Below are positions 9,928 through 33,831 of a stretch of 44,681 bases of DNA, in pieces; position 1 is the first letter of the stretch; each line of letters starts with the position of its first letter. Position numbers and translations under genes: made by a program. Below the pieces are notes generated by a model. The model searched no databases and had not been told where the DNA came from. It saw only the letters and a list, made by a program, of their open reading frames with translations. This stretch comes from Gammaproteobacteria bacterium (GTDB lineage Bacteria; Pseudomonadota; Gammaproteobacteria; GCA-001735895): contig JAACFA010000035.1 in NCBI GenBank assembly GCA_009937625.1, positions 1 to 44,681 of the forward strand, written 5' to 3'.

Positions 9928-10215
9928 AATTGGTACAATAATGCGTCATTTCGGGGCTTAAATCAAGCCTGTATAGCGGGTAAAAAAACTGGATTCGATA
10001 CTATTGAGATAAAATTGGCACTAAGTCACAGAACTTCGTTGAGGCCTATGGGCTGTAGGTTGAAGTTGAACAAGTCATGCATCAATATACTCTAAGTAGC
10101 TGAACTAAAAGAATTAAATGTATAATAGTTTGATGCGCTTGCGGCCGCACAGTGCGTTTTGCGGCAACATTGGCAGTTACTTCCCGAACATAGACTTGCG
10201 AATTGGTCCACTAAT
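9928..10215. promoter_or_regulatory. Candidate GntR/FadR operator repeats AATTGGTmCAmTAAT in the divergent promoter region
   Basis: AATTGGTACAATAAT (9928-9942) and AATTGGTCCACTAAT (10201-10215) match at 13/15 positions; AATTGGT half-sites are typical of FadR-subfamily operators. Confidence 0.4.
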
Positions 10216-10427
10216 AACGCGAATTACCGGCGAAATTGTCCAAAAAAAGGTGCCAGAGGTCTTGTCTTGGCTGACCGGATGGGTATACCATGGCGGCCTG
10301 TCGGGTTCACCCAAACGTCAGGCCGGGCGGCGAAAACCAGAGATTCCCGAAGAATAACCACAGATCGGGCGCTGCCCTGGTAGAACCGAAGAGAAAAAAA
10401 TATTGGTCTTAAACCGTGGAGGGCAAA

Positions 10428-11894: not shown

Positions 11895-12002
11895 GCCGGT
11901 TTCGATCGAATCAAGCCCGGCGCCGGCCCCTGGCCGCGCCGGGAGTATTAACCAGGGGCTGCCCCGGTAGCCCGACTGTTAAAACTAGAAGAGGATATTC
12001 CT

Positions 12003-13765: not shown

Positions 13766-13792
13766 GCATCACCGAGAATTTGGAGAATACAG

Positions 13793-15133: not shown

Positions 15134-15144
15134 GGAGGTCGAAA

Positions 15145-15534
15145 ATGACTGAACTCAGTATTAACCATTTCCTCGAGGGCGACGGCGTCGATACCGAGCG
15201 CGAGAAAATCATCGGTCAACACATCGGCTACCGTTACGATGTGAACCTGGTGCCGGATATGGATCGCTGTACGCCATTCCTGCGCAAGTACATGGAGATC
15301 ATGGGCTGGCAGGACCTGAACTGGCTCGAAGACGTGCACATGGGATACGAGGAAGGGCGGCCCGCGGTGTTCGATCGCAATATCAACGGCTGGGTGACCA
15401 TCCCGGAAGATATCGAACTGCCGGATAACCAGCAGGACCGTGACATGATTGCGCGCGAACTGCTGGTCAAGTTCCAGATGGCAAAGGGACATCCGATGGT
15501 CGATCTGCGCAAGGCTTACGAAAAGTTTGCCTGA
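15145..15534 (+). CDS. Hypothetical soluble 129-aa protein, last gene of cassette 1
   Basis: AAGGAGG RBS overlapping the mgsC stop (11-nt gap); codon style matches the operon; no recognisable domain. Confidence 0.8.
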   Translation: MTELSINHFLEGDGVDTEREKIIGQHIGYRYDVNLVPDMDRCTPFLRKYMEIMGWQDLNWLEDVHMGYEEGRPAVFDRNINGWVTIPEDIELPDNQQDRDMIARELLVKFQMAKGHPMVDLRKAYEKFA

Positions 15535-15788
15535 GGAAAGCGGTGATAAGTGAATAAAATTAACGATTACCGGGGTTTCCAGTAATCCTTTTTTGTTTGG
15601 AAACTGACTGACGGCTCTTTAAATCTTAATTGATAAGGATCGTTGGTATAGGGTATAAAGATGTTTGATTTCTTTCGGGTGGTTAGGGCTTCCTGTGAAG
15701 GAGACTAGTCGCCTGGATTTAGATCAGTCGGATCTTATCCGGCAGTACGCTAGTATAAATTACAATCCTATAACAGAGGGGGGGGAAA

Positions 15789-17153: not shown

Positions 17154-17190
17154 TCGCATACCGTTAACAGATTACTGAGGAGAAAATACC

Positions 17191-17439
17191 ATGGCTACTG
17201 GAGCAGTTGATAATTGGCTCAATATTGATCAGTTCGGCGCAATCTATCCCTTCGTTGGCACGGAAGTATTATTGACGATTCTGGGATTTGCTTTCTGGAT
17301 CGGCTGGCATATCTACCAGTTGAAGAAGGAATCAGCCGAATTCAGGGAAGATATTGAAAACATCAAAAAGCAGGGCGGCCCCGGGAAAGTCCTCGAGGAC
17401 GAGGGCCGACGGGAAATGGAGGATACCGTGGGCCAGTAA
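17191..17439 (+). CDS. Small single-TM protein downstream of Amt 1
   Basis: GAGGAG RBS; 82 aa with one hydrophobic helix (VLLTILGFAFWIGWHIY) and a charged tail; followed by a terminator. Confidence 0.75.
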   Translation: MATGAVDNWLNIDQFGAIYPFVGTEVLLTILGFAFWIGWHIYQLKKESAEFREDIENIKKQGGPGKVLEDEGRREMEDTVGQ

Positions 17440-17475
17440 ACGCCCGTGGTATGCCGCCGCGTTTGTAGTAACCAG

Positions 17476-17505
17476 ACCCCTTCGATTTCGGTCGAAGGGG
17501 TTTTC
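17476..17505 (+). terminator. Rho-independent terminator
   Basis: ACCCCTTCGAT-TTCG-GTCGAAGGGGT followed by TTTC. Confidence 0.7.
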
Positions 17506-17525
17506 ATTATCTCCCCGGGTATTTG

Positions 17526-18026
17526 ATGATAAAAGATGCGCTCTCGGCTATACCGAGCCGGCCGGTCCTGTATATCGCGCCCGTTATCGTGATCGTGGTG
17601 CTGCTGCTTTATTACCGGGACCTGTATATCAAGTGCAGCGATATCAGGCAGCATCGTGAGTCACTAAACGAGTTGATACCGACACTGGACGCATCGGCGC
17701 AATTTCGGCTGGCGGAGTTCACCGGGTTTCGCTGGGATAAGGTCAGGATCATTGCGAAGCTCGAACCCGATGTCAGAACTGTCGAATGTCCCTTCGGCTG
17801 GAACTGGGTCAGTGGCCAAAGGGAATCGCTCGCAAATGCCGGATTATTGAGCGCATTGATATTTGCCCAGCAGGGCACGATCGTAAAATATCTCGAAGTG
17901 CGCAATGACGAAGTCGCGTTTCGTGGCGCCGACTCCAGTTTAACCCCGCAAACCGCGGTTTTTAGTGTCGCTACGAATTCCGATAGCGGCAGCGCCGTTG
18001 CTCTGATATTGAATAAAAAAAACTAG
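17526..18026 (+). CDS. Hypothetical membrane-anchored protein
   Basis: About 166 aa with one N-terminal TM helix (VLYIAPVIVIVVLLLYY); lower GC than neighbours. Confidence 0.6.
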   Translation: MIKDALSAIPSRPVLYIAPVIVIVVLLLYYRDLYIKCSDIRQHRESLNELIPTLDASAQFRLAEFTGFRWDKVRIIAKLEPDVRTVECPFGWNWVSGQRESLANAGLLSALIFAQQGTIVKYLEVRNDEVAFRGADSSLTPQTAVFSVATNSDSGSAVALILNKKN

Positions 18027-18251
18027 AGTCGTCGGAATATTCGGGCCGTTCCTGTGCAGCCCAAACATTGAAACAAGGTCGCCACAGGCAATCTCTATTT
18101 TCGAACCATGTTGCCGGCTTATCGGTACAGAAGATGTCGCTTTGGCGATGTTTTACCGATACGATAATCGTAAAATTGAGTGTGCGGTTCACGCGGCCGG
18201 GTCGCGCATCATAGCGCCGACATTCTAACTTGCTAACTGGGGGAATCAAAT

Positions 18252-19130
18252 TTGGCCACAATCATCGACGGCAAAGCATTTTCGGCTAACCTGCGCGGCG
18301 AAATCGCGCGCAAGGTTGCAATTCTCAAGCAGAATCATGCGCTGACGCCCGGACTCGCGGTAGTCCTGGTGGGGGAAGATCCGGCCAGCCAGGTTTACGT
18401 GCGCAGCAAGGGCAAGCAAACCGCCGAGGCGGGCATGAATTCCTACGAGCACAAGCTCGACGCGGCTACCAGTCAGGCAGATCTGCTGAGCTTGATCGAC
18501 CGGCTCAACGACGACCCCGACGTGCACGGCATCCTGGTGCAACTGCCCCTCCCGGGCCATATCGACGAGGAAGCGGTGATCAACTCGATTTCGGTAGACA
18601 AGGATGTCGATGGATTTCACCTTTCCAATGTCGGCAGGTTATCGATCGGCGCCGACGGTATCGTGCCCTGTACCCCTCTCGGTTCGTTGATGATGCTCAA
18701 GGATCATCTCGGCGACCTGTCGGGCATGAAGGCCATCGTCGTTGGCCGCTCCAACATCGTTGGCAAGCCAATGGCGGCACTCCTGTTAAAGGAAAGCTGC
18801 ACGGTGACGATCGCGCATTCGCGCACCCGCGACCTTCCCGGCGAATGCCGCCAGGCCGATATCCTGGTGGCCGCGGTCGGACGACCGGAAATGATCAAGG
18901 GTGACTGGATCAAGCCCGGCGCCACGGTAATCGACGTCGGTATCAACCGCATCGAAAACGAAGACGGCAGTACGCGCCTGGTGGGCGACGTCGAGTTCGA
19001 TAGCGCCGCCGAGGTTGCCGCTGCGATTACGCCGGTGCCCGGTGGCGTCGGTCCGATGACCATTGCCTGCCTGTTGCACAATACTATGCAGCAGGCCTGC
19101 CGGTTGAATGGCGTCGAGGTGCCGGAGTAA
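18252..19130 (+). CDS. folD: Bifunctional methylene-THF dehydrogenase/cyclohydrolase
   Basis: [55 protein letters not shown] and [11 protein letters not shown]; TTG start. Confidence 0.96.
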
Positions 19131-19212
19131 GGCGGGCCGGTTCTGTTCGAGGTCCATCTAGCCTGTTAAACATGGTAAATTCGGGTCGTTTCGTACCTGT
19201 GCCGGGCTGCTT

Positions 19213-19680
19213 ATGTCCCCGATCCTGAAACGTAGTTTGATATTTATAGTCTTGATGGCGGCCGGGCTGGTGTTGTACATGTCCTGGTACAACATCAAGG
19301 CTGAACGTTTTAACGAGACTGCAATTCCCTACCTGGAACAGGCCCTGCCAAAGTTAACCAGCTGGCAATATCCAGAACTCGAGATGCTGTTGTCTCCTAC
19401 GGCAAAGACCGTATTTGCATCCGATAAAGTTCGGGCTGCTTATCAAGAGTTTAGCCAGTTAGGGCAGCTGCAATCGATGAGCCGACCCGAATTCATGGGA
19501 AATCGCTCCGAGACTTTCGAGGAGCTGGGGGATGTCGAGTTAATCGCCTACCAGGTGCAGCTGGAGTTCGAAACCGGACCGGCCGTGATAAAACTGAACC
19601 TGGCCAGCGACGGCCAGCGCTACTACATCCATCACTTCGGTATTCACTCGCATATATTCGCCGATCACGACGATTCCTAG
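19213..19680 (+). CDS. Hypothetical exported or membrane-anchored protein
   Basis: 155 aa with an N-terminal TM/signal segment; no confident family assignment. Confidence 0.6.
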   Translation: MSPILKRSLIFIVLMAAGLVLYMSWYNIKAERFNETAIPYLEQALPKLTSWQYPELEMLLSPTAKTVFASDKVRAAYQEFSQLGQLQSMSRPEFMGNRSETFEELGDVELIAYQVQLEFETGPAVIKLNLASDGQRYYIHHFGIHSHIFADHDDS

Positions 19681-19712
19681 GCTTAATTTCCGCAGCCATT
19701 GCATGGTCATAG

Positions 19713-19727
19713 GCACCAACATGGTGC
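19713..19727. promoter_or_regulatory. Candidate NtrC-type binding site upstream of amt 2
   Basis: GCACC-AACAT-GGTGC matches the GCACC-N5-GGTGC core of NtrC boxes, about 230 nt upstream of the ATG. Confidence 0.4.
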
Positions 19728-19954
19728 GAAAATTCTTTGTAAAACAAGAACATGGCTATCGTTATATAGATTGGTTATGATTGCGCGGTGCGGCCGGTGG
19801 CACTGCCGGAAGCCCGATAATAATTAAGCGCTCCAGGATCGATATGTGGCGGCCGCCGACCGGCCGGCATGGGCAAACGGACCGCAATCGCGGGAAGCAT
19901 TTGGATTACTGTTGGAGAACAGACACTATAACTTAACTAATAGGGGGAGGCGTA

Positions 19955-21259
19955 ATGACACCTGCAGAACTAGAGTCCGCGTTAACGTGGGCCAACACGA
20001 TAAACCTCGAGGTTTACTATTACTGGTGTACCGCCATCATGATCCTGATCCACGCGGGCTTCATGATGTACGAGATGGGCGCTTCGAGAGTCAAGCACAC
20101 GCTCGCCGCCGGTACCAAGAACGTCCTGGCATTTGCCTACATGATCCCGACTTTCTGGATGTTCGGATGGTGGATCTACCTGGCGATGTACCAGGGTTTC
20201 ACGCCCGACTGGGAAGCCGGCGCGGGTGGCGTACCCTGGGGCGATAGCATGGGCCCGAATCTGCAGGATAACGCTTCCGGCGTATTCTGGGGCGCGTTTA
20301 CGCTGTTTGCCTGTACCACCGCTTCGATCATGTCAGGCGCGGTTATCGAGCGCATCCGTATGACCGCCTTCATTCTCCTCGCGGTTATTCTCGGCTCGGT
20401 GGTGTGGATCCTGTCCGCGTCCTGGGGCTGGCATTACGCCGGCTGGATGGTCACCGACTGGGGTTACCACGACTTCGGCGCCTCCGGTGTGGTGCACATC
20501 ATTTCGGGTTTCTTCGCACTGGGCGTGCTGATCCATCTCGGCCCGCGTATTGGCAAGTTCAACGCCGACGGCTCGGCCAATGTGATCCGCGGCCATAGCC
20601 TGCCGATGACCATGGTTGGATTGATGCTGATCGTGACCGGCTTCTTCGGCTTCCTCGGTGGTTGCCTGTTCTACGGCGGCGGTGGCCCGACCGGTATCGG
20701 TCAGTGGACCAATATCTATGGTATGCCGACCACGCTCTCGGCTATCTGTTTCAACACCTTGATGGGTATCGCAGGTGGCATGATCGGAGCCTATACCAAG
20801 ACTCGCGATCCCTTCTGGATGATGTCGGGCGCACTTTGCGGCGTTATTTCGGTCGCAGCCGGCATGGACCTTTACTACCCGGGTCTCGCCTTCGTACTCG
20901 CCTTTGTGGGTGGCGTGATTGGACCGATGGCGGCGCAATTCGTCGAAAAGATGGGTATCGACGACGCGGTTGGCGCGGTCTCGGTGCATGGCGTCTGCGG
21001 CATCCTCGGGCTGGTGTTTGCCGGTATTTTCCTCGGCGGCTATCCCCAGTTTGCGGATAATATTCCGTCGATCACCTTCGGCGGCCAGTTCAAGGGCATG
21101 ATCGTTATGGTCCTGCTCGGTTTTATACCGGGATTCGTGTTCGCCTGGATCTTCAAGGCACTGGGTATTCTGCGCGCCAGCGACGGCGTCCAGGAAGTCG
21201 GTATGGATGTCGAAATCGAAGCCATGGCCTACCCTGAAGACATCAAGACAATCAACTAG
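19955..21259 (+). CDS. amt: Amt/Mep/Rh-family transporter 2 (divergent; probable methylamine-type substrate)
   Basis: HAGFMMYEMG, SGAVIERIR, HDFGASGVVH, LGPRIGKF and GIDDAVGAVSVHG; GGGAGG RBS. Confidence 0.88.
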   Translation: MTPAELESALTWANTINLEVYYYWCTAIMILIHAGFMMYEMGASRVKHTLAAGTKNVLAFAYMIPTFWMFGWWIYLAMYQGFTPDWEAGAGGVPWGDSMGPNLQDNASGVFWGAFTLFACTTASIMSGAVIERIRMTAFILLAVILGSVVWILSASWGWHYAGWMVTDWGYHDFGASGVVHIISGFFALGVLIHLGPRIGKFNADGSANVIRGHSLPMTMVGLMLIVTGFFGFLGGCLFYGGGGPTGIGQWTNIYGMPTTLSAICFNTLMGIAGGMIGAYTKTRDPFWMMSGALCGVISVAAGMDLYYPGLAFVLAFVGGVIGPMAAQFVEKMGIDDAVGAVSVHGVCGILGLVFAGIFLGGYPQFADNIPSITFGGQFKGMIVMVLLGFIPGFVFAWIFKALGILRASDGVQEVGMDVEIEAMAYPEDIKTIN

Positions 21260-21269
21260 GAGAATAAAT

Positions 21270-21479
21270 ATGTTTAACTCAAGTCCAATCGAAACCTGGG
21301 ACGGCGCGGCAGCTTTCTTCTCCTTCGCCGGATCCGCCGGTATCTGGTTCTGGATTGCCGTAATCCTGTGTATCGTTCCGCTGTTCGTGACGCTGAAGAC
21401 CGAGAATCATCATGAAACTCAGCACAAGTTCAGAAGCGACGATAGCGACAGTACGCACGGTGTTGAAAAAGGCAGTTAG
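21270..21479 (+). CDS. Small single-TM protein downstream of Amt 2 (69 aa)
   Basis: AGGAG RBS overlapping the amt stop and ATG at 21270; MFNSSPIETWDGAAAFFSFAGSAGIWFWIAVILCIVPLFVTLKTENHHE...; followed by a terminator. Confidence 0.75.
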   Translation: MFNSSPIETWDGAAAFFSFAGSAGIWFWIAVILCIVPLFVTLKTENHHETQHKFRSDDSDSTHGVEKGS

Positions 21480-21497
21480 ATCCACCGCTTGAAAATG

Positions 21498-21531
21498 AAG
21501 CCTCGCCTGGAAACAGGTGGGGCTTTTTTTT
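21498..21531 (+). terminator. Rho-independent terminator
   Basis: AAGCCTCGCCTG-GAAA-CAGGTGGGGC followed by a run of 8 T. Confidence 0.85.
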
Positions 21532-21578
21532 GTGCTGGCGGAAATTTTCTCGAACTCAGAATCGCCGCTCCAGCTGAC

Positions 21579-21959
21579 TTACAACTGCTTGAGCTCTTCC
21601 TCGTCGAGCGCCCGATTACTGCCGCGCAGCATCACCAGCAGGGTGCACCCCTGAGGCGCATGCGAGCTGTGTTTCGAGCCCGGGCCGAAACGCACGAAGT
21701 CGCCGGCGCGGTAGCTGCTGCCGTCGCAGTCGACGAGTTCTCCGTCCATCACCAGGAATTCCTCGAACCCGGTGTGTTCATGAGGCTTCGATCGGGCGCC
21801 GGCGTCCATGCGCAGCAGAAAGCACTCGAAGTCATCGTTCAAGCGCTCGCCGCTAAGCGGCAGCCAGGACATACCCGGCACCGGGGTGCCGTAACGATCG
21901 TAGGGGATAAAGTTTCCATCCCCGGTGTTGATGATTTGCCGCAAACTGGTGTCGAGCAT
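21579..21959 (-). CDS. ChrR-like cupin domain protein
   Basis: LLRMDAGARSKPHEHTGFEEFLVMDGEL and YRAGDFVRFGPGSKHSSHAPQGC, the two cupin metal-binding motifs. Confidence 0.82.
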   Translation of the reverse strand: MLDTSLRQIINTGDGNFIPYDRYGTPVPGMSWLPLSGERLNDDFECFLLRMDAGARSKPHEHTGFEEFLVMDGELVDCDGSSYRAGDFVRFGPGSKHSSHAPQGCTLLVMLRGSNRALDEEELKQL

Positions 21960-22150
21960 GATCTCTGGATTCTCCGCCTGATACGCCTTTGTAAACAGGC
22001 GCAGTTTCTGTCGATTGCGCAGGGATTACAAGCCCCCGCGAGCGCCGATTCTGCGCGCCCGTATCAATTTTACGGGTGAGCTGGCGCCCTATTTATAACC
22101 CGGGGCGAGTGTCGATTGATTCAAGTGGTTTTCGACCGCTGCCGAAGGCC

Positions 22151-22182
22151 AAAGAAAGGGCGCGCCGCCCGGCACGCCCCTT
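22151..22182 (-). terminator. Rho-independent terminator of tmm
   Basis: The minus strand reads AAGGGGCGTGCC-GGGC-GGCGCGCCCTTTCTTT, just downstream of the tmm stop. Confidence 0.65.
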
Positions 22183-22206
22183 GAGAGACTACATTGAGAG
22201 AGGTAG

Positions 22207-23550
22207 TCAGGATTCCGCCAGGTAACTCTCCAGTGAATCATCGAGTGCGTCTTTCCACGGTGTGTGGTGCGCCGGCGCCATGGTACCGGTCAGCGCCGAC
22301 TTGTAGCCATGATCGCGGAAAGTCATGATGTTTTCCTTTTTGTGCTTCTTCCACTGGAAGAAAGCCTCGTTCGAACCGGCACAGTCGAACTCGGGATAAT
22401 CGGTCAAGGCCATGAGGTCCATCGTGTACTTGCCCTGGAATTCGATCGCGCCGTAATCGTCCGGAATGTTGTCCTCGGCCTCGCGCCATTTTTCGATGTC
22501 GGCGTTCATTTCGGCTTCCGACGGCAGGTCGAGCCGACCCATGATGACGTCACGCGCGTACCATGCCTGCGCATCGAACATGTTGAAGGTATACCACTGA
22601 TCCTGCATGCCGAGATACATCAGCTTGGGATTCGGCGTCCACACCACGCCGTTGTAGAGGTTGACCGGGTACAGGCGGTTATTGGTCTTCAGCTTCAGGT
22701 TCTCGGCCATGAACGGGAAGTGGTGCAGGTAGCCGGTGCAGAGAATAATGGCGTCGACTTCAGCGGTAGTGCCATCCTTGAAAGTCGCGGTGTTCCTGTC
22801 GACCTTCTCCAGCAGCGGCACCTCTTTCCAGTTGTCGGGCCACTTGTAGCCCATCGGTGCGGTGCGGTGCGAGACCGTGACCGATTTGCAGCCGTATTTC
22901 CAGCATTGCGAACCGATATCCTCGGCCGAGTAGGAAGTGCCGATGATCAGGATATCCTTGTCCTTGAATTCCATCGCGTCACGAAAATCGTGCGCATGCA
23001 GCACGCGCCCGTTGAATGTATCGAAGCCCGGGAACTCGGGTACGTTCGGGGTCGAGAAGTGGCCGGTAGCGACGATAACGTGATCGAATTCCTCGGTGTA
23101 CTCGACGTCTTTCTCGTGATCCTGCACGGTGACGTGAAACATGCCTTCGTGCTCGTCGTAGTGCACGTGACGCACCGGCGAATTGAAACGAATCCAGTCA
23201 CGTACGCCGGCTTTCCTGACGCGGCCCTCGATATAGTCGAACAGTACGGCGCGTGGCGGGTAAGACGCGATCGGCCGTCCAAAATGTTCCTCGAAGGAAT
23301 AATCCGCGAATTCGAGTCCTTCCTTCGGGCCGTTGGACCAGAGATAGCGGTACATGCTGCCGTGCACCGGTTCGCCGTGCTCGTCGAGGCCGGTTCTCCA
23401 GGTGTAATTCCAGAGGCCACCCCAGTCGGACTGCTTCTCGAAACAGACGATATCCGGGATGTCGGCGCCTTTTTCCTTCGCCGACTGAAATGCCCTGAGT
23501 TGCGCCAGGCCGCTCGGGCCGGCACCAATGACTGCAACACGCTTGCTCAT
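22207..23550 (-). CDS. tmm: Trimethylamine monooxygenase (bacterial flavin-containing monooxygenase)
   Basis: [49 protein letters not shown] fingerprint [12 protein letters not shown], and [17 protein letters not shown]; GGAGG RBS. Confidence 0.95.
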
Positions 23551-24489: not shown

Positions 24490-25364
24490 ATGTGCGGAAT
24501 AGCAGGTGTTTTATACAAGCAGGCGGGCAACCACGAAATCGGCAAAACGCTGATCGAAATGCTCGATGGCTGCCAGCATCGCGGACCGGACAGCACCGGC
24601 TTCGCGCTGTATGGCGAGGATAAGGATTTGCTGCAGCTGCGATTTATCGTGCCGACCGATGCCGGTGCTTGCCAGGACGCGATCGACGGTATCGCGACGC
24701 TGCTCGAGCGCCACGGAGCGACTATCGAATCCGAGCTGTCGGTGGGTTGCTCCTACCAGATCTCGGTCAATTTCGAAGGTGACCTGCTGGCTTTCACCAA
24801 GGACATCGAGGAACACGCCAAACTGGTCTCGGTCGGGCACGCGCTCGATATCATCAAGGACGACGGCACCGCGCACGAACTCGACGAGCTTTATCACGTC
24901 GGCGAGGTCAGGGGTACCCACGGTATCGGGCACGTGCGGCGCACCCGTTCTGGGCCACCGGCTTCGAAGACATAGCGATCGTGCACAACGGGCAGATCAC
25001 CAATTACTGGAAAATGCGCCGCCGGCTGGAACGCCGCGGTTTCACCTTCCATACCGATAACGACAGCGAACTGGTCGCGGTGTATCTCGCCGACAAACTG
25101 GAACAGGGCGAGACGCTCGACAGCGTGCTGGAAACAGCGATCGCGGACCTGGACGGCACGTTTTCGTTCCTGGTGTCGACGCCAAACGAAATCGGCTACG
25201 CCAAGGACAACCTGGCGGCCAAGCCGATGGTGCTCTACGAAACCGACGACATGATTGCCATCGCCTCCGAGGAGGTCAGCCTGAATCGACTGTTTCCAGG
25301 GCAATCCATCAATTCAACCGAACCGGCCCCGGGGACCTTTCAGACATGGTCACGATCGATTTAA
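24490..25364 (+). pseudogene. mgsA: MgsA-like class II amidotransferase (cassette 2), broken by a frameshifting deletion at about 24939 (real or artefact)
   Basis: The first frame reads MCGIAG...HGIGHVR; the second resumes AAHPFWATGFEDIAIVHNGQITNYW. The xATESDV segment present in the paralog at 12003 is absent. Confidence 0.8.
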
Positions 25365-27322
25365 GTCATACCAGCATCACCGATGCAAACCAGCAGATTC
25401 GCGACTGGGCGCGTGACGGCCAGGACGTGGAAATTATCAATCCCGACGCCCGTCACAACATCGGTGTCGGCCTGGTCGATCCTATTACCGTGCGGATCAA
25501 GGGTTCCGCGGGTTACTTTTGCGGCGGTCTGTCCGACAGCGCGCACTACGAGATCGAGCACAACGCCGGTTGGGCGGTAGGGGACAACATCTATAAAGGC
25601 TCTGTCGTCGTCGGCGGCAATGCCGGCGCCATCGCCGGGGTTGCGATTCGCGGCGCTGAAATCGTCGTGCGCGGCAACATGGGCAGCCGCGCCGGCCAGG
25701 TGATGAAGGCCGGCACGCTGTGCTGCGGCGGTAACGCGGCTTTCATGGCCGGCTACATGATGTACGGCGGGCGCATTATCATTCTCGGCGACGCCGCGGA
25801 AAAAGTAGGACAGGACATGAGCGCCGGGGAAATCTTTGTCGGCGGCAACATCAAGAGCCTCGGCAACGACACCATGATCGTCGATATGGAAGCCCACGAG
25901 CGCGATGAAATCATGGCGTTCCTCGAGCGCTATAAATTGAACTACCGGGGCGATTTCACCAAGGTCGTCAACGCCGGCAAGAAACTGCGCTACGCCAACG
26001 CCGAGCCGCGCTCGCGCCCGCAGCCTTTCTTCGTGTCGTCGAAGTCCAGCAATTACTGGAATCCGAAAGTGCAGGAAGATATCTGGATCAAGGGCGAGGT
26101 CGGTCGCTACCGCATCCGCGGCTACGGCGCCTCCAAACCGGTGCCGCATCTGAATGACATCGCGTTCGCCAAAGACGTTTCGGGCGTTGCCGCGAGGCCC
26201 GAAGAGCTCAAGGATATCAATCTCAAGACCACCGTCGGCGGGCGCTTCGGCGCCAAACCGCTGAGCTTATCGATGCCCGTTATGATTGCGCCGATGAGTT
26301 TCGGTGCACTCAGCCGCTCGGTCAAGATCGCGCTGGCGCGCGCCTCGCGCCTGTCGGGCATTTCCGAAAATACCGGCGAGGGCGGCATGCTCGACGAGCA
26401 GCGCGCCGAGGCCGATCAGCTCATCTTCCAGTGCCTGTCGGGCCGGCTCGGCTGGAACGTCAAGGACATGCAACGTGCCGACGCGATCGAAATATATATC
26501 TCGCAGGGCGCCAAGCCCGGCCTCGGCGGTCAGCTGATGGCGAAGAAGGTGACCCCGGAACTGGCCGCGATACGCGGAATCCCGGTGGGTATCGATTTAC
26601 GCTCGCCGTCGCGTCACCCGGACGTGCTCGGCGCCGACGACCTCGTCATCAAGCTGCAGGAATTCCGCGAAGCGACCTTCCACAAGGTGCCGATCGGCAT
26701 CAAGATGGGGGCCGGCCGCGTCAACGACGATATCAAGATCGCCTACAAGGACGGTTTCGACTTTGTCGAACTCGACGGCCTGCAGGGCTCGACCGGCGCC
26801 GCCAGCACCGAGGTGCTGGAGAATGTCGGCATTCCGACCCTGTCCGGGGTGCAGGAAGCGATCGACGGCCTGGCCGAAATCGATGCCGGCGACGATATGG
26901 ACCTGGTGATGATGGGCGGCATCAAGGATGGTGTCGATGTCGTCAAGATGCTGGCGCTGGGCGCCGACTGTACCTCGGTCGGCACTTCGGCGATCATCGC
27001 CGGCGGCTGCATCGCCTGCATGCAGTGCCACGTCGGCACCTGCCCGGTGGGTATCGCCACCCAGGACCCGGAGCACGAGGCACGTTACGACATCGACCGC
27101 CAGTCGATGAACATGCACCGTTACTTCGAGTCGCTGCGCTGGCAGATCGCCGCGATCACCAAAGCGTTGGGCTATGACGACGTGCACAAGGTCAATCGCG
27201 GCGACCTGGTGGCGTTGACGCCGGAGGCGGCCGATATCACCGGCTTGCCGTTCAGGCCCGAGCATCGTGAAACCCGGCGCCCGCTGACCGGGCTCGAACT
27301 CCTCGACCGGCAGGCGGGCTGA
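25346..27322 (+). CDS. Fused GXGXG plus FMN-binding glutamate synthase protein (MgsB-MgsC fusion)
   Basis: GXGXG repeats in the first about 215 aa, then GRYRIRG, APMSFGALS, NTGEGGM, SQGAKPGLGG, SPSRHPD and GCIACMQCHVGTCPVG. Confidence 0.87.
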   Translation: MVTIDLSHTSITDANQQIRDWARDGQDVEIINPDARHNIGVGLVDPITVRIKGSAGYFCGGLSDSAHYEIEHNAGWAVGDNIYKGSVVVGGNAGAIAGVAIRGAEIVVRGNMGSRAGQVMKAGTLCCGGNAAFMAGYMMYGGRIIILGDAAEKVGQDMSAGEIFVGGNIKSLGNDTMIVDMEAHERDEIMAFLERYKLNYRGDFTKVVNAGKKLRYANAEPRSRPQPFFVSSKSSNYWNPKVQEDIWIKGEVGRYRIRGYGASKPVPHLNDIAFAKDVSGVAARPEELKDINLKTTVGGRFGAKPLSLSMPVMIAPMSFGALSRSVKIALARASRLSGISENTGEGGMLDEQRAEADQLIFQCLSGRLGWNVKDMQRADAIEIYISQGAKPGLGGQLMAKKVTPELAAIRGIPVGIDLRSPSRHPDVLGADDLVIKLQEFREATFHKVPIGIKMGAGRVNDDIKIAYKDGFDFVELDGLQGSTGAASTEVLENVGIPTLSGVQEAIDGLAEIDAGDDMDLVMMGGIKDGVDVVKMLALGADCTSVGTSAIIAGGCIACMQCHVGTCPVGIATQDPEHEARYDIDRQSMNMHRYFESLRWQIAAITKALGYDDVHKVNRGDLVALTPEAADITGLPFRPEHRETRRPLTGLELLDRQAG

Positions 27323-27324: not shown

Positions 27325-29841
27325 ATGAAAATATCTGACGCTGATTATCAGTTCTCGGTTACCGCGACGCCGGATCTCGAGGACGACACCGCCGATATCC
27401 ATTACGTGCCGGCGCCGTGCCAGGTCGCCTGCCCGATCGGCACCGACGCGCCCTCGTATATCGCCTATATCTGGGAAGGCAAGAACGAGGAAGCGCTCGA
27501 AGCGATCACCGCGACCAACCCCTTTAGCGCGATCTGCGGCCGCGTTTGCGATGCGCCCTGCGAACCGGCCTGCCGGCGCGCCGACAGCGATGGCGCGATC
27601 GCGATTCGCAACCTTAAGCGTTACGTGCTGGATTCGTTAGGCCCGGGGTTCGCATTGCCGCCGGTCGCGGTGACCCGCGAGCAGACCGTCGGTATCGTCG
27701 GCGCCGGTCCGGCAGGGCTGACCGCGGCGCACGATCTCGCCGAGGCCGGCTACGAGGTGCACGTCTACGAGGCCACCGATAAGCTCGGCGGCATGATGTT
27801 CTGGGGCATTCCGCGCTTTCGTCTGCCCGAGGAAGCGGTGCAGCAGGATATCGACCGCATGACCGCGCACTGCCCCGGCATCAAGATTCACACCAATACC
27901 GCGCTCGGCGACCAGGTTTCGCTGGACCAGCTGAAGCAGCAACACGCGGCGGTGCTGTTGTCGATCGGCGCCTTTGTCGGCAAGCCGATGGGGATTCCGG
28001 GCGAGTCCGAGCCCTTCGTCAAGGACGGGGTGGGTTTCCTCTACCACGTCAACGCCGGCGCTCGGCCGACCCTGCCGGAAACCGTGCTGGTGATCGGCGG
28101 CGGCGACGTCGCGATGGACGCCTGTCGCGTCGCCAAACGGTTGCCCGGCGTCAAGCACGTCAAGGTCATTTACCGGCGTGACTACGAGGCGATGCCGGCG
28201 CGACGCGAGGAATTGCAGGGCGCGATCGACGAGGGTATCGAGATTGTCTATAACACCCAGCCGGTCGAGGTTATCGACGGCAAGGCGCTGCGCTGCGTGC
28301 GCACCGAAATGGGAGAGCCGGACGAAGACGGTCGTCGGCGGCCGATCAATATCGCGGGCTCGGAGCATGAAATCGAATGCGGTCTCGTGATTGCCGCGGT
28401 CGGCCAGAAGGCCGAATGCGATGAGCTCGCGCAGAGCGGCCTGATGGACTGGGACCGCGTCAAGACCCGCCTCGAGGGCATGGTAACCGAGGATGCGAAG
28501 GTATTCGCCGCGGGCGACGGCGCCTTCGGCGGTTCGACCATCGTCGAAGCGATGTACCAGGGCCACCGCGCGGCCTACTATATGAAGGCATATCTCGAAG
28601 GTAACGAAAATCCCTTGCCCTATCGCACGCCGTACCGCACCCGGCACGTACCAATTTGTAACGATCCGGCCTGGGAAATCAACCCGCGAGTTCATCAGAA
28701 ATTCCATGGCCTCGGCGAGATCCCGATCGAGTTCCCTGAAATCGAATCGACCTACACCGCCGACGAAGCGAAGTTCGAAGCGGCACGCTGTTTTCGCTGC
28801 GACGCCGAAACCGGTTCGGCCGACTATACCGTGACCAGCCGCGAGGCGATTTTCGCGATGTCGCGCATCAACCCGCAGGACGCCGAGATCGAGTCCAGTA
28901 TCCTGCAGGGCAGGCTGGAAAACCGCGATAATCCGTTCGGCATCGAGCACGTCGCGACGCTGGACGACCTGGTATTCCTGCCGGCCAACCTGTCGCGCCT
29001 GGTTATCGACCCGTACCGCGAGGATTGTAAAACCGCGACCGAGCTCGGTGCTATCAATAGCCTCAAGCTCGAGATCCCGTTCGTGGTGGCCGGCATGGAT
29101 CTTGCGCCCGACGAGATTCGCGAAGCCTACGCCACCGCCATTGTGGCCCACGGCGCCGCCTATATCGGCGCGAAACCTATTGGCGACGACGCCAGCTGGA
29201 TACAGATCGCCGAGACCGAAGCCGACACCGCTGCCGATGCCGTCGTATTCAGGGGGGGCCAGGCCATCGAGGCTAGCAAGGTCGAGCGCGCGCGTGATTC
29301 CCAGCCGGTCGGATTGCTGGTGGACAATCACAACCTGGCGCAGGCGATACCCTTCGCGCTGGAGCAGGAAATCGATTTCCTGGTGCTCGACGCCGGGGAC
29401 GGTTTGCCGGGCATCGAAGCCGAGCTTGCGGGCGCGCCCGATATTTCGATTTTGCATCATGCGGTTAGTCAGCTGCGGGCGCTCAACCGCGAGGAAGATA
29501 TCGACCTGGTTTACTTCGGCGGTTTACGCACCGGTACCGACAGCGCAAAAATTCTCGCGCTGGGCGCGACGGCCGTGATCATTGGCGTCGCGGCGGCGCT
29601 TTCGCTCGGCGCCGATATTTCCAGCGGCAGCCCGCTCTACGATGCCGACCTGGATGCCGAGGAGCGCGCCGAGCGCAGTTACAATCTGCTGCAGGCTTTC
29701 AACGCCGAGGCCGCGATGATGGCGCGCTGCACCGGCAAGACCAACGTGCACAACCTCGAACCCGAAGACCTGCGCGCGATCACGCTGACGGTGTCGCATG
29801 CCGCGGGCGTGCCGATGGCGGGGAGTTTGAATCAGCATTGA
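27325..29841 (+). CDS. GltD-like FAD/NAD(P)H Fe-S oxidoreductase fused to a degenerate glutamate-synthase FMN barrel
   Basis: PCQVACP, ICGRVCDAPCEPACRR, GAGPAG, GGGDVAMD..YRR and ARCFRCD, then TLDDLVFLPANLSRLVIDPYRE...GGLRTGTD..K.LALGA...KTNVHNLEPEDL. Confidence 0.85.
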   Translation: MKISDADYQFSVTATPDLEDDTADIHYVPAPCQVACPIGTDAPSYIAYIWEGKNEEALEAITATNPFSAICGRVCDAPCEPACRRADSDGAIAIRNLKRYVLDSLGPGFALPPVAVTREQTVGIVGAGPAGLTAAHDLAEAGYEVHVYEATDKLGGMMFWGIPRFRLPEEAVQQDIDRMTAHCPGIKIHTNTALGDQVSLDQLKQQHAAVLLSIGAFVGKPMGIPGESEPFVKDGVGFLYHVNAGARPTLPETVLVIGGGDVAMDACRVAKRLPGVKHVKVIYRRDYEAMPARREELQGAIDEGIEIVYNTQPVEVIDGKALRCVRTEMGEPDEDGRRRPINIAGSEHEIECGLVIAAVGQKAECDELAQSGLMDWDRVKTRLEGMVTEDAKVFAAGDGAFGGSTIVEAMYQGHRAAYYMKAYLEGNENPLPYRTPYRTRHVPICNDPAWEINPRVHQKFHGLGEIPIEFPEIESTYTADEAKFEAARCFRCDAETGSADYTVTSREAIFAMSRINPQDAEIESSILQGRLENRDNPFGIEHVATLDDLVFLPANLSRLVIDPYREDCKTATELGAINSLKLEIPFVVAGMDLAPDEIREAYATAIVAHGAAYIGAKPIGDDASWIQIAETEADTAADAVVFRGGQAIEASKVERARDSQPVGLLVDNHNLAQAIPFALEQEIDFLVLDAGDGLPGIEAELAGAPDISILHHAVSQLRALNREEDIDLVYFGGLRTGTDSAKILALGATAVIIGVAAALSLGADISSGSPLYDADLDAEERAERSYNLLQAFNAEAAMMARCTGKTNVHNLEPEDLRAITLTVSHAAGVPMAGSLNQH

Positions 29842-29896: not shown

Positions 29897-31213
29897 GTGG
29901 CCAAAGATCTCGAAGCGATCGCAAAAGCAAAAAAAATAAAGTATTTCCTGGTGAGCTGGGTCGACCTGTTCGGCGTGCTGCGCGCCAAGCTGGTGCCGGC
30001 GCGCGCGATCAAGGGGATGCAGAAAGACGGCGCCGGCTTTGCCGGGTTCGCGGCCTGGCTCGACATGACGCCGGCACACCCGGACCTGTTTGCCATTCCC
30101 GATCCCGACAGCCTGATTCAACTGCCGTGGAAACCGGAAATCGGCTGGGTCGCGGCGGACCTGTGGATGGATGGCAAGGAAGTCGAGGCTTCGCCCCGGG
30201 TCGCACTCAAGCGGCAACTCGCCAAAGCCCGGAAAAAAGGTTACCGCATGAAGACCGGGGTCGAGTGCGAGTACCACCTGATTACCTCTGACGGCAGCAG
30301 CATCGCCGACGCCGCCGACACCCAGTCCAAACCCTGTTATGACCAGCTGGCCTTGATGCGCCAGTACCCGGTGATCGGAGAAATTTGCGACTGCATGCTC
30401 AAGCTGGGCTGGAATCCCTACCAGAACGATCACGAGGACGCCAACGGGCAGTTCGAGATGAACTGGGATTACGACGATGCGCTGAAAACCGCCGATAAGC
30501 ACGTGTTTTTCAAGTACATGGTCAAGACGATTGCCGAAAATCACGGCCTGCGCGCGACCTTCATGCCGAAGCCGTTCACACATCTGACCGGTAACGGTTG
30601 TCACGCTCACGTCTCGCTATGGGATCGTGCCGGCAAGAAGAACCTGTTCGCCACCGCTCGCAGGGAGCCGCGGGACCTTGGCCTGTCACCGCTCGCCTAC
30701 AAGGCGCTGGGCGGCATCATGCACAACGCCCAGGACTTGACCGCAATTTTCAATCCCACGGTCAACAGCTACAAGCGCATCAATGCACCGCGCACGCTAT
30801 CGGGCGCCACCTGGTCGCCCAACGCGGTGACCTACAGCGGTAACAATCGTACCCACATGATTCGTGTGCCCGAGGACGGGCGTTTCGAACTGCGCTTGAT
30901 GGACGGTTCGGCTAATCCCTATCTAATGCAGGCCGGTGTGCTGGCCGCAATTCTCGACGGCATCGAGAACAAGCGCGATCCGGGCGATCCGATCCATCTG
31001 AACATGTACGAGGAAGGGCACAAGGTCAAGAGTGCGAAGAAACTGCCGGGTAACCTGCTCGATGCATTACGCCAACTTGATCGTAACAAGGAAATCCGTG
31101 CCGGTCTGGGCGACGAACTGATCGACGCCTACATCAAGCTCAAGCTCGATGAGTGGACCAACTACATGAGCAGCCTGAGCGACTGGGAACGAGCCAACAC
31201 GCTGGATTGCTGA
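29897..31213 (+). CDS. gmaS: Gamma-glutamylmethylamide synthetase (GlnT-type glutamate-methylamine ligase)
   Basis: IKYFL...DLFGVLRAKLVPA, GAGFAGFAAWLDMTPAHPD, KPCYDQ, YQNDHEDANGQFEMNW, SGATWSPN and NNRTHMIR. Confidence 0.92.
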   Translation: MAKDLEAIAKAKKIKYFLVSWVDLFGVLRAKLVPARAIKGMQKDGAGFAGFAAWLDMTPAHPDLFAIPDPDSLIQLPWKPEIGWVAADLWMDGKEVEASPRVALKRQLAKARKKGYRMKTGVECEYHLITSDGSSIADAADTQSKPCYDQLALMRQYPVIGEICDCMLKLGWNPYQNDHEDANGQFEMNWDYDDALKTADKHVFFKYMVKTIAENHGLRATFMPKPFTHLTGNGCHAHVSLWDRAGKKNLFATARREPRDLGLSPLAYKALGGIMHNAQDLTAIFNPTVNSYKRINAPRTLSGATWSPNAVTYSGNNRTHMIRVPEDGRFELRLMDGSANPYLMQAGVLAAILDGIENKRDPGDPIHLNMYEEGHKVKSAKKLPGNLLDALRQLDRNKEIRAGLGDELIDAYIKLKLDEWTNYMSSLSDWERANTLDC

Positions 31214-31300: not shown

Positions 31301-31461
31301 ACCCTCATCGATTCTTAATTTAAGTGTCGCTTTCGAGATACTTTCGCAGCTATCGAGCCCCTATGATACGCCGACTGGGAATCCTGCCGGCGCAAGCCTG
31401 CATGGAGGTAAAGATGCGCGCAGACGCATGTAACCGTTGATAATTTTCTACGGAGATAATG

Positions 31462-33135
31462 ATGGCTAAAAGTGATATCGAAATTGCTCGTGAAGCAACC
31501 CTGAAACCGATCACGGAAATCGCGCACCGGCTCGATATTTCCCCGGACGATTTCAAACCCTACGGGCACGACAAGGCGAAGCTGACATCCGAGTTCATCA
31601 ACTCGCTGCAGGACAAGCCCGATGGCAAGCTGATCCTGGTCACCGCGATTTCACCGACGCCGGCGGGCGAGGGCAAGACCACGACCACGGTCGGGCTGGG
31701 CGACGGTCTCAACAGCATCGGCAAGCAAGCCGTCATGTGCCTGCGCGAGCCCAGCCTCGGACCCTGTTTCGGCATGAAGGGCGGGGCAGCCGGTGGCGGC
31801 TATGCCCAGGTGGTGCCGATGGAAGATATCAACCTGCACTTCACCGGCGACTTCCACGCCATCGGAGCCGCACACAACCTGCTGTCGGCGCTGGTCGATA
31901 ACCACGTGCAGTGGGAAAACAAGTCGGGTATCGATGCGCGCCGCATTACCTGGAAGCGCGTCATGGACATGAACGACCGCACCCTGCGCGATATCACCAT
32001 CGGCCTCGGCGGACCCGGCAACGGCACCCCGCGCGAGAGCGGCTTCGACATCACCGTGGCCTCGGAAATCATGGCAATCTTCTGTCTCGCCACCGACCTC
32101 GACGACCTGAGTCGCCGTATCGGCAACATCGTGGTCGGCTACACGCGCGACCAGAAGCCGGTGCTGGCGCGCGACGTCAACGCGCCGGGCGCGATGACGG
32201 TATTGCTGAAGGATGCCTTCATGCCGAACCTGGTGCAGACGCTGGAAAATAACCCCGCCTTCATCCACGGCGGCCCGTTCGCCAATATCGCGCACGGCTG
32301 CAACTCGGTGATCGCCACCAAAACCGCGCTCAAGCTGGCCGACTACGTCGTCACCGAAGCCGGTTTTGGAGCCGATCTCGGCGCCGAGAAATTTTTCGAT
32401 ATCAAGTGCCGCAAAGCGGGCCTGAGTCCCGACGCGGTGGTGCTGGTGGCGACCGCGCGAGCGTTGAAAATGCATGGCGGCGTGGCCAAGGATCAACTCG
32501 CCGGTGAAAACGTCGAGGCCATCGTCAGGGGCTGCGACAATCTCGGTCGACATATCCGTAACCTGAAACAGTTCGGCGTGCCGGTGACGGTCGCGATAAA
32601 CCGTTTCTCCGCCGACACCGAGGGTGAATTGGACGCGATTCGAGAATTTTGTGACGCGCTCGAGGTCAAGGCTTTCGACTGTAACCACTGGGGCGAGGGC
32701 AGCAAGGGAACCCAGGAACTAGCGCGGCACGTCGCCGAGGTTGCGGATTCCGGGCAGTCGCAGTTCCACACGCTGTACGACGACGACATGCCCTTATGGG
32801 ACAAGGCGCGCCATATCGCGCGCACGCTCTACGGCGCCGACGATATCATTGCCGACAAGAAAGTACGCGATCAGTTTGCCCGTTTCGAAGCCGACGGATA
32901 CGGCCACTTCCCGGTCTGCATGGCCAAGACCCAGTACAGTTTTTCCACCGACCCTTCGCTGATCGGCGCGCCCAGCGGGCACGAAGTGCCGATTCGTGAA
33001 GTGCGCCTGTCGGCCGGCGCCGAGTTCATTGTTGCGGTTTGCGGAGACATCATGACCATGCCGGGATTGCCGCGGGTGCCCTCGGCGGACAATATTCACC
33101 TGAATGCGGACGGCCAGGTCGAGGGCTTGTTTTAG
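31462..33135 (+). CDS. fhs: Formate--tetrahydrofolate ligase
   Basis: [66 protein letters not shown] and [10 protein letters not shown] (alternative start at 31459). Confidence 0.97.
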
Positions 33136-33303: not shown

Positions 33304-33831
33304 ATGGACCCCGCCGAACAGTATCAAAGTTTTATCTCCTGGCAGTGCCGCCTGCGTAAGCTCGCCATGCGCGAGCGAGACGGGCGCCCCAGCGAGGGCA
33401 TGAGAGCCGGTATACACGCGGTCGCCGGGGGTGACGAACAGGCCCGGATCAACGTCCTGATCAACCGTGTGAACTCATCCGATCGCACCAGCGAGTTCCG
33501 TCATATCATCCGCAAAACGCACGATTCGAGTCAATGGGTAAAGAACGGACTGCGGATCCTGGCCGAACTGCATTATCACGAAACAGATCAGTTCGTGAAC
33601 GAATTATCCGCGCTGTTCAGTTACGACTCTTCAATCGCCTATGCCTTGCTAAAGGCAGGGCAGTGCAAGCTGAGGTTCGCCGAGGGCAGCATCGAGCATG
33701 CTTTCGATTTCGATGTCAGGTCGCTGGACCAGGATGACGAGCTGTTCCAGGCAACCTACTGGCACAATCACCTGTTCAACCCCGCGCTGCCGGGCAAGGT
33801 GCGGGTGCTGGCGTTTACGCCGCGGTTATAA
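33304..33831 (+). CDS. Hypothetical protein (WQCRxR ... TYWHNxLFNP motifs)
   Basis: 175-aa ORF downstream of fhs; its stop overlaps that of the convergent GATase gene. Confidence 0.75.
   Translation: MDPAEQYQSFISWQCRLRKLAMRERDGRPSEGMRAGIHAVAGGDEQARINVLINRVNSSDRTSEFRHIIRKTHDSSQWVKNGLRILAELHYHETDQFVNELSALFSYDSSIAYALLKAGQCKLRFAEGSIEHAFDFDVRSLDQDDELFQATYWHNHLFNPALPGKVRVLAFTPRL

Follow-up and report, generated by a model that had tools for sequence, protein, structure and literature searches.

A GltD-like reductase joined to a degenerate MgsC-type barrel as candidate electron-input subunit of a variant N-methylglutamate synthase

Introduction

The N-methylglutamate (NMG) pathway is the main methylamine route of marine and soil bacteria. 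Methylamine is a climate-relevant nitrogen and carbon compound, and the chemistry of NMG synthase, whose described form is the three-subunit MgsABC, is unsettled. The locus described here lies in a stretch of 44,681 nucleotides from a gammaproteobacterium (GTDB lineage Gammaproteobacteria; GCA-001735895; assembly GCA_009937625.1, contig JAACFA010000035.1, positions 1 to 44,681 of the forward strand), hereafter the window. In it, an open reading frame (ORF) at 27325-29841 encodes P0001, a protein that joins a GltD-like reductase module to a barrel derived from the synthase subunit MgsC and stands directly behind the gene for an MgsB-MgsC fusion, P0002. We propose that P0001 probably serves as scaffold and electron-input subunit in a glutamate synthase (GOGAT)-like variant of NMG synthase dependent on reduced nicotinamide adenine dinucleotide (phosphate), NAD(P)H.

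An analogy between the glutamine synthetase (GS)/GOGAT couple and the pair formed by gamma-glutamylmethylamide (GMA) synthetase, GmaS, and NMG synthase was drawn in Mindt 2018, citing Gruffaz 2014 (PMC6237917), and passages of the same paper describe the redox cofactor and reductant of NMG synthase as unidentified. According to a review (PMC8097209), GltD-like modules hand electrons from NAD(P)H on to another protein via low-potential [4Fe-4S] clusters. In the literature we found no description of a four-component or GltD-linked NMG synthase. Public names of P0001 homologs are only 'FAD-dependent oxidoreductase' or 'GltD-like', and under such generic names the family is missed by pathway surveys based on mgsABC.

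Results

P0001 begins with a GltD/NfnB-like reductase module and ends in a pseudo-barrel derived from MgsC; between the two lie first a permuted CxxC arm and then a linker. The start codon of P0001 follows the P0002 stop after a gap of 2 nt. The features of the two genes are as follows (FAD, flavin adenine dinucleotide; FMN, flavin mononucleotide; TIM, triosephosphate isomerase; AF2, AlphaFold2).

27325-29841, plus strand: P0001, candidate electron-input protein, 838 amino acids (aa), ATG start (ORF and translation, Pfam, NCBIfam)
27412-27636, plus strand: Fe-S domain (Fer4_20) of P0001, residues 30-104; Pfam E 9.7e-22; CxxxCP and CxxxCxxxCxxxC
27688-28563, plus strand: FAD- and NAD(P)H-binding domains of P0001, residues 122-413; Pyr_redox_2 E 8.2e-28; GAGPAG, GGGDVAMD, YRR
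28732-28803, plus strand: relocated N-terminal arm of P0001 with RCxRCD, residues 470-493 (alignment to 4ylf_B, 9bov_A and 8oh5_C)
28957-29820, plus strand: pseudo-barrel of P0001, residues 545-832, an MgsC-derived TIM barrel (alignments, AF2, fold matches, predicted P0002 interface)
25346-27322, plus strand: P0002, MgsB-C fusion partner, 658 aa; Pfam GXGXG 34-168 and Glu_synthase 304-610 (E 3.2e-91)

The FAD and NADPH-type motifs that a sequence-only reading of this DNA had assigned to the N-terminal module were located (GGGDVA and YRR, within the Pyr_redox_2 match), and these domains align to those of GltD (2vdc_G/6s6s_G), NfnB (4ylf_B) and 9bov_A. Against solved chains of GltD, NfnB and NfnABC the reductase module as a whole scores 209-306 bits. 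P0001 falls below the GltD equivalog cut-offs (TIGR01317, 189.4 bits against 447.7; TIGR01318, 253.5 against 482.95; TIGR01316, 274.5 against 471.75), and no curated NCBIfam family reaches its cut-off; the nearest entry for residues 29-496 is PRK12771 'NAD(P)-binding protein' (407 bits, cut-off 516), PRK12814 also being matched. A protein search with P0001 listed 120 homologs of 58-95% identity, nearly all of 830-860 aa.

Eight cysteines in three motifs are conserved among the relatives, CxxxCP in 60 of 60 sequences, CxxxCxxxCxxxC in 59 of 60 and RCxRCD in 60 of 60, and are the predicted ligands of two [4Fe-4S] sites. The same reading had held that the CxxC of the first cluster is moved downstream (ARCFRCD), and this is correct: the string is present, and residues 470-493 align to residues 20-43 of Thermotoga maritima NfnB (4ylf_B). 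The relocated RCxRCD arm would supply the two cysteines missing from the first cluster. The segment also aligns in place to approximately residues 545-567 of the NfnABC/StnABC subunits 9bov_A and 8oh5_C, and a downstream CxxC, judged from these alignments, is not unique to the P0001 family.

The C-terminal part of P0001 had been described as a relative of MgsC stripped of the synthase motifs, and both halves of that description were borne out. In MAFFT alignments the likeness to MgsC runs from end to end, from DDLxF...YRExC through ...GKTNxxNLEPEDL, and the strings quoted for it are present: TLDDLVFLPANLSRLVIDPYRE at residues 545-566 of P0001, TWDDLTFMPGTLTRFVIEGYRE at residues 47-68 of the MgsC-like protein encoded at 13793-15133, and KTNVHNLEPEDL as it had been quoted. 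Aligned together with its own relatives from other phyla against three kinds of live barrel (canonical MgsC, the MgsC-like ORF 13793-15133 and the P0002 barrel), the P0001 barrel has MSFGALS and GGTGA replaced and GEGG deleted, together with the QGxKxGxGG...SPxxH block (46 columns) and the Fe-S loop (30 columns). These losses were seen in the window protein and in aligned relatives, four in one alignment and two in another.

Residues 495-838 were modelled with AF2 on a 60-row alignment. The model has eight strands (predicted local distance difference test score, pLDDT, 87.7; predicted template modelling score, pTM, 0.85), and its closest fold matches are FMN-dependent barrels (1p0k_A, VIA Z 21.0; 1fcb_A, Z 20.8). 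The FMN domain of Azospirillum brasilense GltS alpha (6s6s_A 821-1189) is matched at Z 18.8 with a root-mean-square deviation (rmsd) of 3.3 A over 265 aligned residues. Since P0001 and P0002 also match in BLASTP at E 8e-16 over residues 661-831, the barrel likeness is not due to chance. Pfam recognises Glu_synthase in P0001 only weakly and in part (residues 674-763, 29.1 bits, E 7.2e-7, Pfam cut-off 20.4), and the FMN_dh and IMPDH profiles overlap on residues ~712-764.

The barrel is called dead from the loss of its FMN, substrate and Fe-S motifs, yet the beta7 motif YFGGxRxGTDxAK, which the same reading did not mention, is kept and invariant in the pseudo-barrels, with G732, G733, R735, G737, T738, D739 and K742 of P0001 identical in 60 sequences. 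In barrels of this superfamily the motif is classically where phosphate binds. Over the same 60 genomes mean pairwise identity is 0.79 for the P0002 barrel, 0.83 for the P0001 Fe-S domain and 0.51 for the pseudo-barrel, within which the beta1-beta6 part has 0.41, the beta7-beta8 part 0.62 and the N-terminal motif 0.82, a pattern that points to relaxed but real constraint. Tree building groups the pseudo-barrels in a single clade with a long stem (1.37), their tip branches being 0.12-0.55 against 0.015-0.13 for the P0002-type barrels of the module, and three sister pairings are identical in the two clades. The two terminal motifs of the pseudo-barrel are common to canonical MgsC and to the MgsC of the window's second gene set (set 1, below), and are replaced in the P0002-type barrel.

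P0002 consists of a GXGXG beta-helix followed by an FMN barrel with every synthase-site motif and a CxxCxxCxxxxC motif. The latter is present in 60 of 60 P0002-type barrels with all four cysteines invariant, against 0-1 cysteines in the corresponding loop of four of four canonical MgsC proteins (same-genus genome G157, Paracoccus yeei, Aestuariivirga litoralis and genome G003), which fits a canonical MgsC that carries FMN only. The canonical mgsC genes examined were the following.

L090, 8141-9466
L092, 9004-10329
L093, 6985-8274
L094, 11717-13006

A complex of P0002 (658 aa) with residues 530-838 of P0001 was predicted from a 60-row alignment for each partner. The prediction scored 0.80 (runs 0.80, 0.79 and 0.80), against 0.01 for the best of three controls. 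Of 80 solved complexes 58 reach the mark for such scores, as do 2 of 110 mismatched pairs; these counts are rough with self-made alignments. The runs share at least 77% of contacts and partner pLDDT is at least 87. The model supports, rather than demonstrates, binding of the pseudo-barrel to P0002. On the P0001 side the predicted interface comprises residues 534-561 (N-motif), 701-705, 733-742 (beta7), 755-765, 783-804 and the C-terminal tail, and on the P0002 side residues 234-271, the QGAKPG loop (385-393), the SRHP loop (422-433), 454-507 and 624-638. Of 42 invariant pseudo-barrel residues, 18 fall within the 62 interface residues (of 309), an enrichment (odds ratio 3.8, Fisher p 2.6e-4) that shares its alignment with the complex model and is to this degree not independent of it. 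The remaining invariant patch, 562-568 and 805-815, may face another partner.

Comparison across genomes ties P0001 firmly to the fusion protein. With one genome scanned for each species, at least 598 stretches matched, at least 528 of them with relatives (tblastn E <= 1e-3), and the best 80 loci were kept; they match P0001 over both modules, barring short contigs that end inside the gene. Where more than 700 nt of DNA precede the gene, a P0002 homolog ends no more than 400 nt upstream in every case (77 of 77 loci); overall one lies upstream in 79 of the 80, and locus L056 has just ~530-575 nt upstream. In the loci with room, the MgsBC fusion is directly preceded by an MgsA-type amidotransferase in 66 of 66, and the module is followed within 1.5 kb by a GmaS-like gene (at least 60% identity) in 20 of 56. 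Beyond this synteny, six protein clusters of 1486-1510 aa with 18 member sequences (JGI, Logan, ENA, NCBI), found in a search among longer proteins, are P0002 and P0001 fused into one chain with GXGXG, Glu_synthase, Fer4_20, Pyr_redox_2 and, last, the pseudo-barrel. Both lines strongly support the claim that P0001 belongs with the MgsB-C fusion, and likewise a role in electron input. Another architecture is seen in P0139 (1031 aa, three contigs) and likewise in the fragment P0135, where MgsBC is joined to the linker and pseudo-barrel and the GltD module is absent. The apparently free-standing pseudo-barrels P0133, P0145 and P0150 were set aside as most likely fragments, their start methionine being internal in full-length relatives.

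Full-length members of the P0001 family occur in at least 80 species-level genomes; the family is conserved and no local oddity. By their record labels the carriers among the best 80 loci belong to Gamma- and Alphaproteobacteria, Burkholderiales, Planctomycetota, Gemmatimonadaceae (Gemmatimonadota), Latescibacterota and Lentisphaeria, and one is cultured, Aestuariivirga litoralis KCTC 52945 (locus L084). Within the class the family is sporadic, with a pseudo-barrel in 3 of 201 genomes sampled evenly, the window's own genome counted; class-level co-occurrence is accordingly given as raw counts, three carriers being too few for statistics.

The genomic slot of the module was revealed by a same-genus genome, G157 (99% complete), in which the pseudo-barrel is absent. 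Its syntenic contig carries Amt, FolD, Tmm (minus strand), a helix-turn-helix (HTH)-cupin regulator, mgsA (304 aa), mgsB (226 aa), mgsC (441 aa) and a gmaS 90% identical to that of the window. With canonical mgsABC standing between the same regulator and this gmaS, the module occupies the canonical mgsABC slot. The plasmid pTT13-1 of P. yeei carries a classical cluster (regulator, Amt, GATase, GXGXG, barrel, glnT) and, farther on, genes annotated 'NAD(P)/FAD-dependent oxidoreductase' and 'aminomethyltransferase family' that we take to be Tmm-like and Tdm-like. Locus L050, from Burkholderiales, has the module between a DAO/SoxB-like gene on one side and SoxA-like, SoxG-like and GS genes on the other (Pfam); L072 is alike by tblastn only.

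Five genomes (G001-G005) were taken in which the module lies away from gmaS. Canonical gltB (PF04898 in ORFs of 1320-1572 aa) is present in all five, and TIGR03105 scores above cut-off in all five and in 8 of 8 module genomes tested overall, against a background of 20 of 201 genomes in the class sample (3 of the 8 module genomes being counted therein) and 1 of 14 control genomes. In G002, G004 and G005 the Glu_synthase genes at E <= 1e-20 are gltB and the module barrel only, and in two of these three genomes without another MgsC-like gene (G002 and G004) a type III GS stands beside SoxB/SoxA-like genes. Elsewhere in the window's own genome there are SoxD genes, on two further contigs, along with pieces of canonical gltB and a gltD of 695.5 bits; P0001 is therefore not the house GltD, nor the module the house GOGAT.

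The module is embedded in a methylated-amine island, the relevant features of which are listed here (Ntn, N-terminal nucleophile).

6772-9138, minus strand: Tdm
10416-15133: set 1, a paralogous GS/Mgs-like set (GS-like 492 aa, GATase 312 aa, GXGXG 278 aa, MgsC-like barrel 446 aa)
22207-23550, minus strand: Tmm, NF058570 841 bits
23760-24392, plus strand: HTH_3 and cupin regulator (Pfam), operon-upstream, a place conserved in L090 of the same genus and in many of the related loci
24490-25364, plus strand: class-II (Ntn) amidotransferase of MgsA/GlxB type, MgsA2, split into frames 24490-24975 and 24981-25364
29897-31213, plus strand: GmaS, GMA synthetase, a type III GS; TIGR03105 655 bits (cut-off 469.6)

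Around both Mgs-like sets the island (6772-9138, 15789-23550 and 31459-33135) encodes Tdm, two Amt, FolD, Tmm and Fhs (formate-tetrahydrofolate ligase). The window GmaS matches the solved chains 7cql_A (624.5 bits, E 7.4e-187), titled 'Type III glutamate--ammonia ligase' in the PDB, and 9qur_A (347.7 bits), titled 'Glutamate--methylamine ligase'; 7cql_A is presumably itself a GmaS. MgsA2 is 34% identical to canonical MgsA and 42% to the set-1 MgsA, and gave no match to the genome's own GltB piece L006, a negative without meaning because that piece does not span the amidotransferase domain.

In relatives the amidotransferase is a single frame of ~300 aa, with 75 nt between the matched halves against 41 nt in the window. 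Contigs from the DNA runs X1 and X3 and the RNA-library run X15 have 31 extra letters at 24936-24938, which with a 3-letter overlap amount to 34 nt; they are otherwise identical to the window, and the gene is intact in three of the four runs compared. Because the missing 34 nt are present in otherwise identical contigs, the break is most likely an assembly deletion or minor variant, not a sign of decay. X1 and X3 may be the source of the assembly. Some of their contigs, not the main ones, carry 32 extra letters at position 25393, in the P0002 N-terminus, which may be a strain variant. The stretch is present in 20 sequencing runs from 13 studies, and contigs from RNA libraries (X15 and X17; two studies) cover the locus genes, although such contigs cannot prove transcription or operon structure.

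Set 1 is a paralogous gene set whose GS-like protein scores 303 bits with TIGR03105 against a cut-off of 470, and it could serve as a route for another amine, e.g. dimethylamine. Its MgsC-like barrel has four cysteines in the Fe-S loop, but no reductase gene belongs to the set. A gene set of this type adjoins the module in L037, L061 and L074. The 175-aa ORF 3' of fhs (33304-33831) has no Pfam or NCBIfam match and is kept at 57-87% identity, likewise downstream of fhs, in 10 of the related gammaproteobacterial loci.

Discussion

The proposed enzyme is encoded by three genes, for the amidotransferase MgsA2, for P0002 with its GXGXG domain and FMN/Fe-S barrel, and for P0001. GMA made by GmaS would be hydrolysed by MgsA2 and the methylamine handed to the P0002 barrel, where it would condense with 2-oxoglutarate to an imine that FMNH2 reduces to NMG. 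Within P0001, electrons would run from NAD(P)H to FAD and on to the two predicted [4Fe-4S] clusters, and from there to the Cys4 cluster of P0002; the net reaction would be GMA + 2-oxoglutarate + NAD(P)H -> NMG + glutamate + NAD(P)+. The C-terminal barrel of P0001 would be a catalytically empty, flavin-free MgsC paralog whose N-motif, beta7 loop and C-terminal helix pack on P0002, keeping the reductase on the synthase. The substrates, the direction of the reaction and the cofactor content are what we infer from comparison. The genomic context, above all the mgsABC slot, provides good support for a variant NMG synthase and is also what speaks for the predicted formation of NMG from GMA or methylamine by the module.

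A reductive, GOGAT-like NMG synthase had been suggested for this locus before, and the Fe-S ligands of the module barrels, present in 60 of 60 and matched by none of the four canonical MgsC proteins, fit it; an Fe-S site in the catalytic barrel where a GltD-like partner is encoded makes a reductive mechanism likely. The scheme itself has a precedent, one of the GOGAT kind for NMG synthase being already discussed in the earlier literature (PMC6237917). The reductase-bearing module itself is unannotated as an NMG synthase, and it is widespread. The suggestion that the pseudo-barrel docks the reductase onto the MgsB-C fusion has model support, from the predicted complex, but the wording is too narrow because fusions of MgsBC to the pseudo-barrel without a GltD module exist.

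Several observations weigh against this reading. The gmaS gene is non-adjacent in 36 of the 56 loci with room, and genomes G001 and G003 hold a complete canonical mgsABC-gmaS-sox cluster besides the module, which may there have a non-redundant task. (In G003, locus L094, canonical mgsABC is present as tandem copies, 10059-13006 and 13514-16461, with identical match statistics, which may reflect a genuine duplication or a repeat introduced in assembly.) The architecture of P0139 and P0135 suggests that the barrel has a role beyond docking a reductase, and through its invariant GGxRxGTD, a classical FMN-phosphate site, it may bind a ligand. On the modelling side, the interface statistics lean on the same alignment as the complex model, which in turn may lean on a remembered GltS alpha architecture, and a full-length AF2 model of P0001 (pLDDT 78.6, pTM 0.58, with low confidence near the Fe-S regions and the linker) does not fix where the reductase lies relative to the barrel. 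The amidotransferase gene is broken in the window assembly, and the enzyme could take glutamine or another gamma-glutamyl amide.

Some of these points would be accommodated by a different enzyme. With an Ntn amidotransferase, GXGXG, an FMN barrel with Fe-S and a GltD-like module, all the elements of GOGAT are present by sequence, and the module might be an additional glutamate synthase that depends on glutamine, in effect an NAD(P)H-GOGAT that has been split and rearranged and that re-assimilates ammonia from methylated amines with the type III GS as a true glutamine synthetase; the non-adjacent gmaS genes and the coexistence with canonical mgsABC in G001 and G003 speak for it. We regard this as quite improbable, given the canonical gltB in six of six module genomes examined and the canonical gltD in the window's own, the position of the module in the mgsABC slot of G157 and among sox/mgd-like genes in L050 (Pfam) and L072 (tblastn), an adjacent ligase with 624.5 bits to 7cql_A and 347.7 bits to the 'Glutamate--methylamine ligase' 9qur_A, and an amidotransferase of MgsA/GlxB type (34% identity to canonical and 42% to set-1 MgsA). 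Replacement of canonical mgsABC beside a 90%-identical gmaS also argues against the view that the module makes an N-alkylglutamate from another amine or gamma-glutamyl amide (ethylamine, dimethylamine or another small amine) as a parallel route and is not an NMG synthase. In G002, G004 and G005, moreover, it is the only MgsC-like gene to accompany the type III GS, with Sox-like neighbours in two of the three. This view has in its favour the complete canonical NMG cluster that coexists in G001 and G003, the diversification of the enzyme family visible in set 1 (10416-15133) and the statement in Lidbury 2017 (PMC5520151) that many marine Gammaproteobacteria lack dmmDABC; we think it unlikely.

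A further alternative concerns the C-terminal barrel, which might bind FMN or another phosphorylated ligand through an intact beta7/beta8 phosphate site and so work as a sensor in regulation or as one more relay for electrons. The seven invariant residues of the beta7 motif, FMN_dh and IMPDH matches over precisely that segment and the nature of the closest folds, all barrels that bind FMN or inosine monophosphate (Z ~20), speak for a ligand. Yet all other FMN and substrate motifs of the family are deleted or replaced, and the beta1-beta6 half, where the isoalloxazine would lie, is the least conserved (0.41). As G733, R735, G737, T738 and K742 lie in the modelled P0002 interface, their invariance can be explained without a ligand, and we see a ligand-binding barrel as a minor prospect.

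If P0001 does feed electrons into a reductive NMG synthase and serves as its scaffold, the P0001 family is a candidate built-in NAD(P)H inlet for the enzyme and a clear, if predicted, case of a pseudo-enzyme domain kept as an interface. The restriction of Fe-S ligands to barrels with a reductase partner (60 of 60 in the module, none of the four canonical barrels) makes the question of a reductive or a redox-neutral synthase testable, and the cultured carrier A. litoralis KCTC 52945 makes the system experimentally tractable. One may go further and propose two mechanistic classes of NMG synthase, FMN-only MgsABC and the module as an NAD(P)H 'methyl-GOGAT' whose reductase is held by a dead barrel; this is tentative, and we would place it slightly short of an even chance. 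Were it true, the second class would put methylamine nitrogen directly on a new carbon skeleton, the source of the electrons of NMG synthase would be answered, and the pairing of a live with a dead barrel found within classical GltS alpha would have been independently re-invented.

Among known systems, NADPH-GOGAT (GltB and GltD) shares with the module an Ntn amidotransferase, GXGXG, an FMN barrel with Fe-S and a GltD-like subunit with two [4Fe-4S] motifs. The module differs in that these pieces lie on three genes and in another order, with GXGXG ahead of the barrel; Glu_syn_central (PF04898) was not detected in P0001 or P0002 (E <= 0.01), the beta-like subunit has an extra dead barrel, and the CxxC of its first cluster stands behind the FAD/NADPH domains. 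P0001 also remains under every GltD equivalog cut-off, with true gltBD elsewhere in its genome. The central domain of GltS alpha (PF04898) is a rudimentary FMN-type barrel beside a live one in Pfam/SCOP terms, and would parallel, by analogy only, a dead barrel that supports a live one. The dead barrel of P0001 sits on the beta-like subunit, however, and was rejected as a GltS central domain itself, PF04898 being without a match at the same threshold and the fold match in 6s6s_A being to the FMN domain.

The NfnB-like modules of NfnABC/StnABC (9bov_A, 9n5u_A, 8oh5_C) are the best sequence and fold matches of P0001 residues 30-494 (9bov_A, 306 bits) and likewise have the relocated CxxC arm, but they precede molybdopterin-oxidoreductase-like domains, whereas that of P0001 precedes a GltS-type barrel; nothing in P0001 indicates electron bifurcation. 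Dihydropyrimidine dehydrogenase (DPD) is a further parallel, in that one chain holds a GltD-like module and, behind it, a TIM barrel; its domain IV (1gt8_A 527-939) matches the pseudo-barrel at Z 15.1. The DPD barrel is a live FMN domain of dihydroorotate dehydrogenase type with two further [4Fe-4S] clusters, while the P0001 barrel is MgsC-derived, stripped and without C-terminal Fe-S motifs. A DPD-like global arrangement was rejected at a whole-chain TM score of 0.42 and an rmsd of 19-21 A over ~920 columns.

The closest relative is canonical MgsABC (GlxBCD), with which the module shares the three domain types, the gene order, the gmaS neighbour and the genomic slot, and the locus resembles the P. 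yeei plasmid cluster. In the module MgsB and MgsC are fused, the barrel has the Cys4 motif in 60 of 60 sequences against 0-1 cysteines in four of four canonical MgsC proteins, and a fourth component, the reductase with its pseudo-barrel, is added, a GltD-like gene being present in none of the canonical mgsABC clusters examined. By the added P0001 and the Cys4 motif of the P0002 barrel, the module is a variant of MgsABC rather than a canonical member.

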